Positions 58,444 to 58,896 of a stretch of 64,000 bases of DNA are shown piece after piece. A program made the position numbers and the translations under genes. The DNA comes from Promethearchaeota archaeon (GTDB lineage: Archaea > Asgardarchaeota > Lokiarchaeia > Sigyniarchaeales > SOKP01): the NCBI GenBank assembly GCA_016840085.1, contig JAEOTA010000086.1, positions 1-64,000 of the forward strand, in the 5' to 3' direction. Each line of letters starts with the position of its first letter. The stretch's first letter is position 1. Below the pieces are notes generated by a model. It made no database searches. It had not been told where the DNA came from and saw nothing but the letters and a program-made list of their open reading frames with translations.

Positions 58444-58896
58444 ATGTGTGCTGAAGAATTTGCCTCCTTCTTAGAAACTACGCGAAAAGCTCCAATAGAG
58501 GAAAAACTCAATGCTTTTGGAGATATCGTTGAAAAAATAATGCAAATTGTGCTTAAGATCCCTGATTTAGTCGATCAAAGTCTTCAGACTGTCAATACAA
58601 AAGTTACTAATTTGCAAAATCAATTAACAGCTATAAATAATGATCTTTCATCACTTAAATCAGGTGGTACAATAGCCCCAGCAGCACCTGCCGCTTCACC
58701 AGCACCCGCATTAGGCGGCCCACCACCTGGAGGTCCACCTGGGGGTCCACCTGGGGGTCCACCCCCACCTGGAGGTCCACGGGGACCAGGACCAACTCCA
58801 GGGCCAAGTCGTCCAGCAAGTCCAGTTACTCTAAGAGGTGCAATTATGGGAGAACTTAAGCAGTTGTTCGCTAAAAGAAAGAGTCAATCGGGTTAA
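58444..58896 (+). CDS. coiled-coil / polyproline / C-terminal basic amphipathic helix protein
   Basis: Heptad N-terminus, (GGPP)n tract, C-terminal LRGAIMGELKQLFAKRK. Confidence 0.75.
   Translation: MCAEEFASFLETTRKAPIEEKLNAFGDIVEKIMQIVLKIPDLVDQSLQTVNTKVTNLQNQLTAINNDLSSLKSGGTIAPAAPAASPAPALGGPPPGGPPGGPPGGPPPPGGPRGPGPTPGPSRPASPVTLRGAIMGELKQLFAKRKSQSG
58729..58782 (+). repeat. 12-bp tandem repeat GGRGGTCCACCT encoding GGPP units
   Basis: ggaggtccacct gggggtccacct gggggtccaccc ccacct ggaggtccacgg. Confidence 0.9.

Follow-up and report, generated by a model that had tools for sequence, protein, structure and literature searches.

An unannotated 150-residue protein encoded at positions 58444–58896 (+ strand) of the window, the 64,000-nucleotide stretch of DNA from a Loki-type Asgard archaeon analysed here, belongs to an Asgard-wide family in which a helical head is joined through a linker to a conserved tail helix. 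The open reading frame is a real gene, because it has 205 homologues; the family is likewise real and Asgard-wide, and its link to actin is plausible. In the literature searched, which included the structural-ESP paper PMC12962969, we found no description of it. We propose, at even odds (a probability of about 0.5), that the protein is an oligomeric Asgard adaptor, stripped down but Ena/VASP-like, that would tether or bundle Lokiactin at curved membranes. Asgard archaea are the closest relatives of eukaryotes, and VASP is a eukaryotic actin elongator. The known Asgard actin regulators are mainly profilins and gelsolins. Crawling Asgard archaea extend protrusions filled with actin (PMC13716822), and their filament nucleation machineries have been described as still undiscovered (PMC9433394). 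Asgard cells seem to lack an actin-assembly factor, and the family is a candidate for this role that can be put to the test: its protein is small, soluble and nearly universal among Asgard archaea, its tail is VASP-like, and it has a BAR-fold neighbour and small-GTPase fusions. If the proposal is true, membrane-coupled actin assembly predates eukaryotes. The present analysis tested the BAR fold and its synteny, asked whether the Loki and Heimdall proteins are homologous, and quantified the match to the VASP FAB.

AlphaFold2 predicts helices at residues 2–14, 18–72 and 130–149 (pLDDT 86–96) and a disordered middle. The first helix (58447–58485, +) is short and amphipathic, with F6 and F9 invariant among close homologues. 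The second (58495–58659, +) is long and contains a regular heptad coiled coil at residues 47–71; heptad positions 47, 50, 54, 57, 61, 64, 68 and 71 are hydrophobic in 81–100% of 84 diverse family members. A disordered Ala/Pro/Gly linker (58660–58809, +), with a GGPP tract at 58714–58779, then leads to a Pro cap and a basic amphipathic tail helix resembling the VASP FAB (58810–58881, +). The original prediction of a coiled coil, a Pro/Gly tract and a tail is borne out by this layout, as heptads, tract and tail are all present in the 150-residue frame. The 205 homologues range from 82 to 263 residues in length, and the 120 of them that were listed are 52–81% identical to this protein. Across these 120, conservation is strong in the head (residues 3–46) and the tail (residues 123–145) but not in the linker. 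Poor conservation of the tail helix had been named in advance as one observation that would speak against the prediction; L130 to F142 are in fact 99–100% conserved, except for G136 (90%) and the variable Q140. Phylum-wide, the 84 diverse members keep an E-L-K core in 94–98% of cases, Arg at −6 in 73%, and Leu and Phe at +4/+5. Two to four basic residues follow the core in 83 of them; in the present protein the C terminus lies four residues beyond the tail's basic cluster, and the end is basic and devoid of Trp.

The linker is the variable part, ranging from 2 to 97 residues among the 84 diverse members, with the minimum of 2 in a single one. In this copy the GGPP unit occurs four times, and no Pro run exceeds four residues. 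Runs of at least five Pro residues occur in 99 of the 120 close homologues and in 14 of the 84 diverse members, and at least two GGPP units in just 2 of the 84. The predicted (GGPP)n tract thus exists here, but it is local to this Loki family. A promoter scan stayed at chance level, and when this protein alone served as query, a tblastn-pattern scan gave no match.

The close-homologue profile found matches in 157 of 301 Asgard genomes, and a search of 1.84 billion representatives returned 591 matches. A widened profile (A7) matched 357 of 400 Asgard genomes, a figure that is an upper bound because several weak matches proved to be unrelated coiled coils (L272–L274, L276). A7 matches reach E <1e-15 in most Loki, Hel-type, Thor-like, Odin, Jord and Borr genomes; those in several Heimdall-group families are weak, and some are unrelated coils. 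Named members come from Odinarchaeum, Jordarchaeales, Borrarchaeum, Deferrimicrobium, Freyarchaeota, Njordarchaeota and Hodarchaeales, all of them annotated as 'hypothetical', and the close homologues carry the names Promethearchaeota or Lokiarchaeota. ESM Atlas clusters are 96–99% archaeal and have no Pfam family. The present genome holds a paralogue at C69:139996 and an Arf/Rag-like GTPase at C69:86335 (E 7e-8 and 5e-5). A second, Helarchaeales-type paralogue of ~300 residues (L249, L255, L256) combines a long head coil, an internal tail-like helix, a Pro/Gly tract and a Lys-rich end.

The tail was compared with known actin-binding helices by means of a profile built from 84 sequences, with 1.19 million windows of the organism's own proteome as background; the VASP GAB and FAB sequences were taken from a review (PMC10340426), and the N-WASP C helix was checked against PDB 2vcp. 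VASP FAB scores 20.4 bits on this profile, or 17.9 bits without a padding residue (shuffle p 2e-4), and the only background windows to score as high belong to three own members of the family. Scaled to 1.1e7 windows, a score at this level is expected by chance 1–4 times per eukaryote-size proteome. The match drops to ~10 bits when ten Thor-like rows are left out or when the close Loki rows are used alone, a level at which ~150–270 chance matches would be expected per eukaryote-size proteome, and FAB was picked as the comparison after the fact. The resemblance to the VASP FAB that had been predicted therefore stands as a likeness above background, but it leans on the Thor-like rows; because the score is ~10 bits without them, it is suggestive only and does not prove homology. 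The proposed alignment with the N-WASP C helix turned out to be modest (9.9 bits, shuffle p 0.002): 53 windows of the own proteome score higher, such scores are expected 200–300 times per 1.1e7 windows, and a search of the PDB with the tail profile retrieved no WASP chain. On these scores, the tail fits VASP FAB better than the N-WASP C helix. Pfam WH2 (PF02205) matched neither the Loki protein nor the Heimdall form, and an LKKV-type motif C-terminal to the tail occurs in 0 of the 120 close homologues.

The head had been likened to the BRK1/CCDC53/WHD helical bundle, a resemblance that Pfam and PDB searches could not distinguish from that of any generic coiled coil. Both kinds of search returned generic coils, such as GCN4 fusions, Lpp and viral fusion proteins, and the best matches among PDB sequences are mostly trimeric; judged from its sequence, the head is probably a trimer. 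Pfam CCDC53 (PF10152) matched 7 of 29 members with a best E of 0.014; none of these matches came near the cut-off or surpassed those to unrelated coil families. A family member was the top CCDC53 match in 2 of 5 Asgard genomes, and 6 of 14 control genomes also gave matches. WASH_WAHD (PF11945) did not match this protein. With the 150-residue model, Foldseek and Atlas searches gave no usable match, and VIA returned generic helices with Z up to 5. A chain of the WAVE complex (7usc_C) appeared at VIA rank 41 with Z 4.3, a likeness that we do not regard as meaningful. The suggestion that the Pro tract is a profilin ligand is also weak, given that Loki and Odin profilins are reported not to bind polyproline, with Heimdall LC3 and Thor profilins binding weakly (PMC8410842); for the same reason, a polyproline–profilin step would be the weakest of the mechanism. 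The Pfam profilin family had no match in this genome, and none in the control genomes either, which makes its absence here uninformative.

The family profile also led to a related protein of 260–330 residues in 27 of 31 Heimdallarchaeaceae genomes, including H. aukensis, H. endolithica and AB_125. Its head matches the family HMM at E 3e-7 to 0.1, with no match to the reversed profile, and in most rows scores above all unrelated coils of its own genome. For the head, hhalign gives 92.5% (E 5e-7). In most rows, two tail-like helices rank among the best 1e-5 of windows. Since three separate segments match, the head and the two tail-like helices, sequence comparison identifies the Heimdallarchaeaceae protein as homologous to the Loki family. 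Between its linker and the first tail-like helix lie two or three repeats, in each of which a short helix leads into L-x-K-[VAI]; the final repeat stands 30–35 residues (mode 31) N-terminal of the Glu of the basic helix. Human VASP has 31 residues from L235 to E266 (numbering of PMC10340426), a match in spacing that derives from one family of related genomes. Families f27 and f26 (L250, L254) show the same order of parts as the Heimdall form, with a spacing of 23–25 in f27. The status of the Heimdall repeats as WH2 motifs is unproven, because Pfam WH2 misses them and VASP GAB fits them weakly (p 0.04). The Heimdall form further contains acidic stretches, without Trp.

An unannotated gene at 55193–55348 (+) encodes 51 residues that comprise a WH2-like helix with L-Q-K-V and a charged helix; it is kept in 51 of 60 relatives, lies ~3–5 kb from the family gene in most of the same genus, and has no match to Pfam WH2. 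About ten tandem repeats resembling this micro-ORF are found in a poly-WH2-like protein of ~490 residues (L091:685–2148, − strand, in G213), which is conserved in family f2 and is the best Pfam WH2 match of its genome, at E 0.7 and below the cut-off. On contig C24 of the present genome, an LRR protein (L105:1123–2391, −) has a tail-like helix running into a micro-ORF-like segment, a pairing of LRR and WH2 that recalls leiomodin.

Immediately upstream of the family gene, across a gap of 130 nt, lies a co-oriented gene (57687–58313, +) that adjoins it at every one of the 30 loci fetched, and also in a single sister-family genome. Its model (pLDDT 92) consists of three long antiparallel helices over ~200 residues. 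The top 22 Foldseek rows for this model are all BAR, I-BAR or F-BAR domains, the best being arfaptin (TM ~0.6, E 7e-3), and none reaches E 0.001; VIA-align also ranks arfaptin first, with an rmsd of 5.0 over 186 residues and a Z of 13.7, which is borderline for helical bundles. On these models, the gene product is predicted to adopt a BAR-type fold. The BAR neighbour turned up in 26 of 151 genomes, all within the family and order of this organism; elsewhere the gene neighbours differ. In two Helarchaeales-type families the neighbours include roadblock-like genes, recognised by eye, and a member in f9 has Rab-like genes nearby. One Helarchaeales-type member has a gelsolin gene ~0.9 kb and an actin-like gene (by eye) ~5 kb away, and Lokiactin is encoded on the same contig as the present gene, at a distance of 117 kb. 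The member at L286 (G310 C5:149000–158000), in a Helarchaeales-type genome, lies within ~5 kb of genes for a roadblock-like protein, a gelsolin and an actin-like protein.

The commonest fusion partner of the head–tail module is an Arf/Rag-like GTPase. The GTPase at C69:86335 ends in a head coil and tail, and module-bearing GTPases of this kind recur across Lokiarchaeia, with three in tandem in one genome (G210). Fusions with the head only and with the tail only both exist; among 20 gelsolin loci from 5 genomes, a small sample, no gelsolin fusion was found. Arf/Rag-like GTPases at L056:6336–7574 (−) and L285 combine an N-terminal extension of ~130 residues with a C-terminal head coil and tail.

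By the defining features tested, the family is not a member of Ena/VASP or of the NPFs; arguing by analogy, we put at even odds that it works in the manner of an Ena/VASP or NPF scaffold reduced to its minimum. With Ena/VASP it shares a predicted oligomerising coil, a Pro-rich tether and a FAB-like basic helix, to which the Heimdallarchaeaceae form adds GAB-like repeats at a modal 31 residues before the FAB-like helix. By contrast, Ena/VASP has an EVH1 domain, to which this protein, all helical at its N terminus, has no match, and a GAB/WH2 segment that is missing from the Loki form. The tetramerising coil of Ena/VASP is C-terminal, whereas that of the family is N-terminal; moreover, the Pro runs of the family are short and lineage-specific, and there is no match between profiles at the family level. 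WAVE/SCAR, WASH and N-WASP have the same order of parts, namely an N-terminal helical coil, a Pro-rich region and a C-terminal helix, with WH2-like repeats and an acidic stretch in addition in the Heimdall form; the Loki form differs in having neither a WASH_WAHD match, WH2 nor an acidic-Trp end, and its C-helix match is modest. Eukaryotic NPFs act together with BAR proteins and small GTPases. CCDC53/WASHC3 and BRK1/HSPC300 are similarly small and likewise have a Pro-rich stretch behind a coiled coil, yet family matches to CCDC53/WASHC3 do not rise above those to unrelated coils. Asgard profilins and gelsolins occur in the same organisms and presumably have the same target, without any relation in sequence or fold to the family.

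In the adaptor mechanism that we favour, the heads would form a parallel, probably trimeric coil, either with themselves or with GTPases that bear the same coil, and the resulting oligomer would present several tails on long tethers. Each tail may bind the acidic Lokiactin in the way that VASP FAB binds F-actin, and the oligomer could thereby bundle filaments or hold their ends, while the BAR protein and the GTPases would place it at curved membranes, for example in protrusions. For the Loki form, tethering or bundling is likelier than nucleation, because it has no WH2; the Heimdallarchaeaceae form, with its WH2-like repeats, could additionally deliver monomers. The original prediction is partly supported, and the actin and membrane context is stronger than could be seen at the time, because of the BAR neighbour, the GTPase fusions and the WH2-like relatives. 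The mechanism fits a co-immunoprecipitation of Lokiactin in which an ARF GTPase was enriched and two BAR proteins were detected (PMC13716822), although these may differ from the module-bearing GTPases and the BAR neighbour described here; the text of that paper names no protein of the head–linker–tail family. It is a more speculative and, in our view, rather doubtful idea that the family is a forerunner of the Ena/VASP EVH2 (GAB–FAB) or of the WASP-family V–C segment, with a coil–linker–FAB protein already in the last Asgard common ancestor and WH2 gained in Heimdallarchaeia, and that it builds protrusions with BAR proteins and Arf-like GTPases.

As a rival reading, the protein may serve the Asgard network of small GTPases and membrane traffic as a general module for docking or scaffolding. 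Its head would then assemble with GTPases bearing the same coil, and its tail would bind a non-actin partner (a BAR, roadblock/longin or GTPase protein) or acidic lipid. We consider this possible, if less likely than the actin adaptor: it would account for the prevalence of Arf/Rag-like GTPases as fusion partners, with three tandem paralogues in one genome, and for the roadblock-like neighbours in two Helarchaeales-type families and the Rab-like genes near the f9 member. Basic amphipathic helices are, besides, common ligands of lipids and proteins. Such a module leaves unexplained, however, why the Heimdallarchaeaceae form has WH2-like repeats at VASP-like spacing and why Thor-like tails are FAB-like in sequence.

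Alternatively, the tail might be structural and fold back on the head coil, for autoinhibition or to complete the bundle, without an outside ligand. Head and tail do co-occur, even where the linker of a GTPase fusion is short and poor in Pro, but we think this explanation unlikely, as head–tail pairs are not in excess among the top 50 covarying pairs of a shallow alignment (24% against 38% expected), fusions with either part alone exist, and one member is almost without a linker (2 residues). It is highly improbable that the tail is an ESCRT-III-type MIT-interacting motif through which the protein serves Vps4 and ESCRT, an alternative that the original prediction had itself raised. ESCRT-III tails do likewise end in an amphipathic helix that comes behind a Pro-rich linker, yet the MIM1 pattern occurs in 0 of 84 members in either a strict or a relaxed version, ESCRT-III is absent from the 25 Pfam families listed as matches, and no ESCRT gene was recognised by eye among the neighbours.

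Lokiactin is present in this genome as two copies that are 96% identical (C83:176166 and C38:1313), one of which may be foreign, with assembly contamination at 7.6%; there are two further, divergent actins, one with a frame of 510 residues. Convergent with the family gene lies Elf1 (59135–59728, −), with a C-terminal helical and acidic extension of ~110 residues, and an Elf1 gene also stands beside the family orthologue in G213. Coiled-coil proteins at C9:95248, C18:26444, C85:64883 and C50:74336, some of them Pro-rich, end in a shared two-CxxC zinc ribbon that resembles the zinc-binding tail of an extended gelsolin (L232). On contig C51, finally, a helical and Pro/Gly-rich protein of 240 residues (L055:9153–9872, −) ends in a tail-like helix scoring 13.7 bits, and a divergent actin is encoded on its strand, two genes further downstream.
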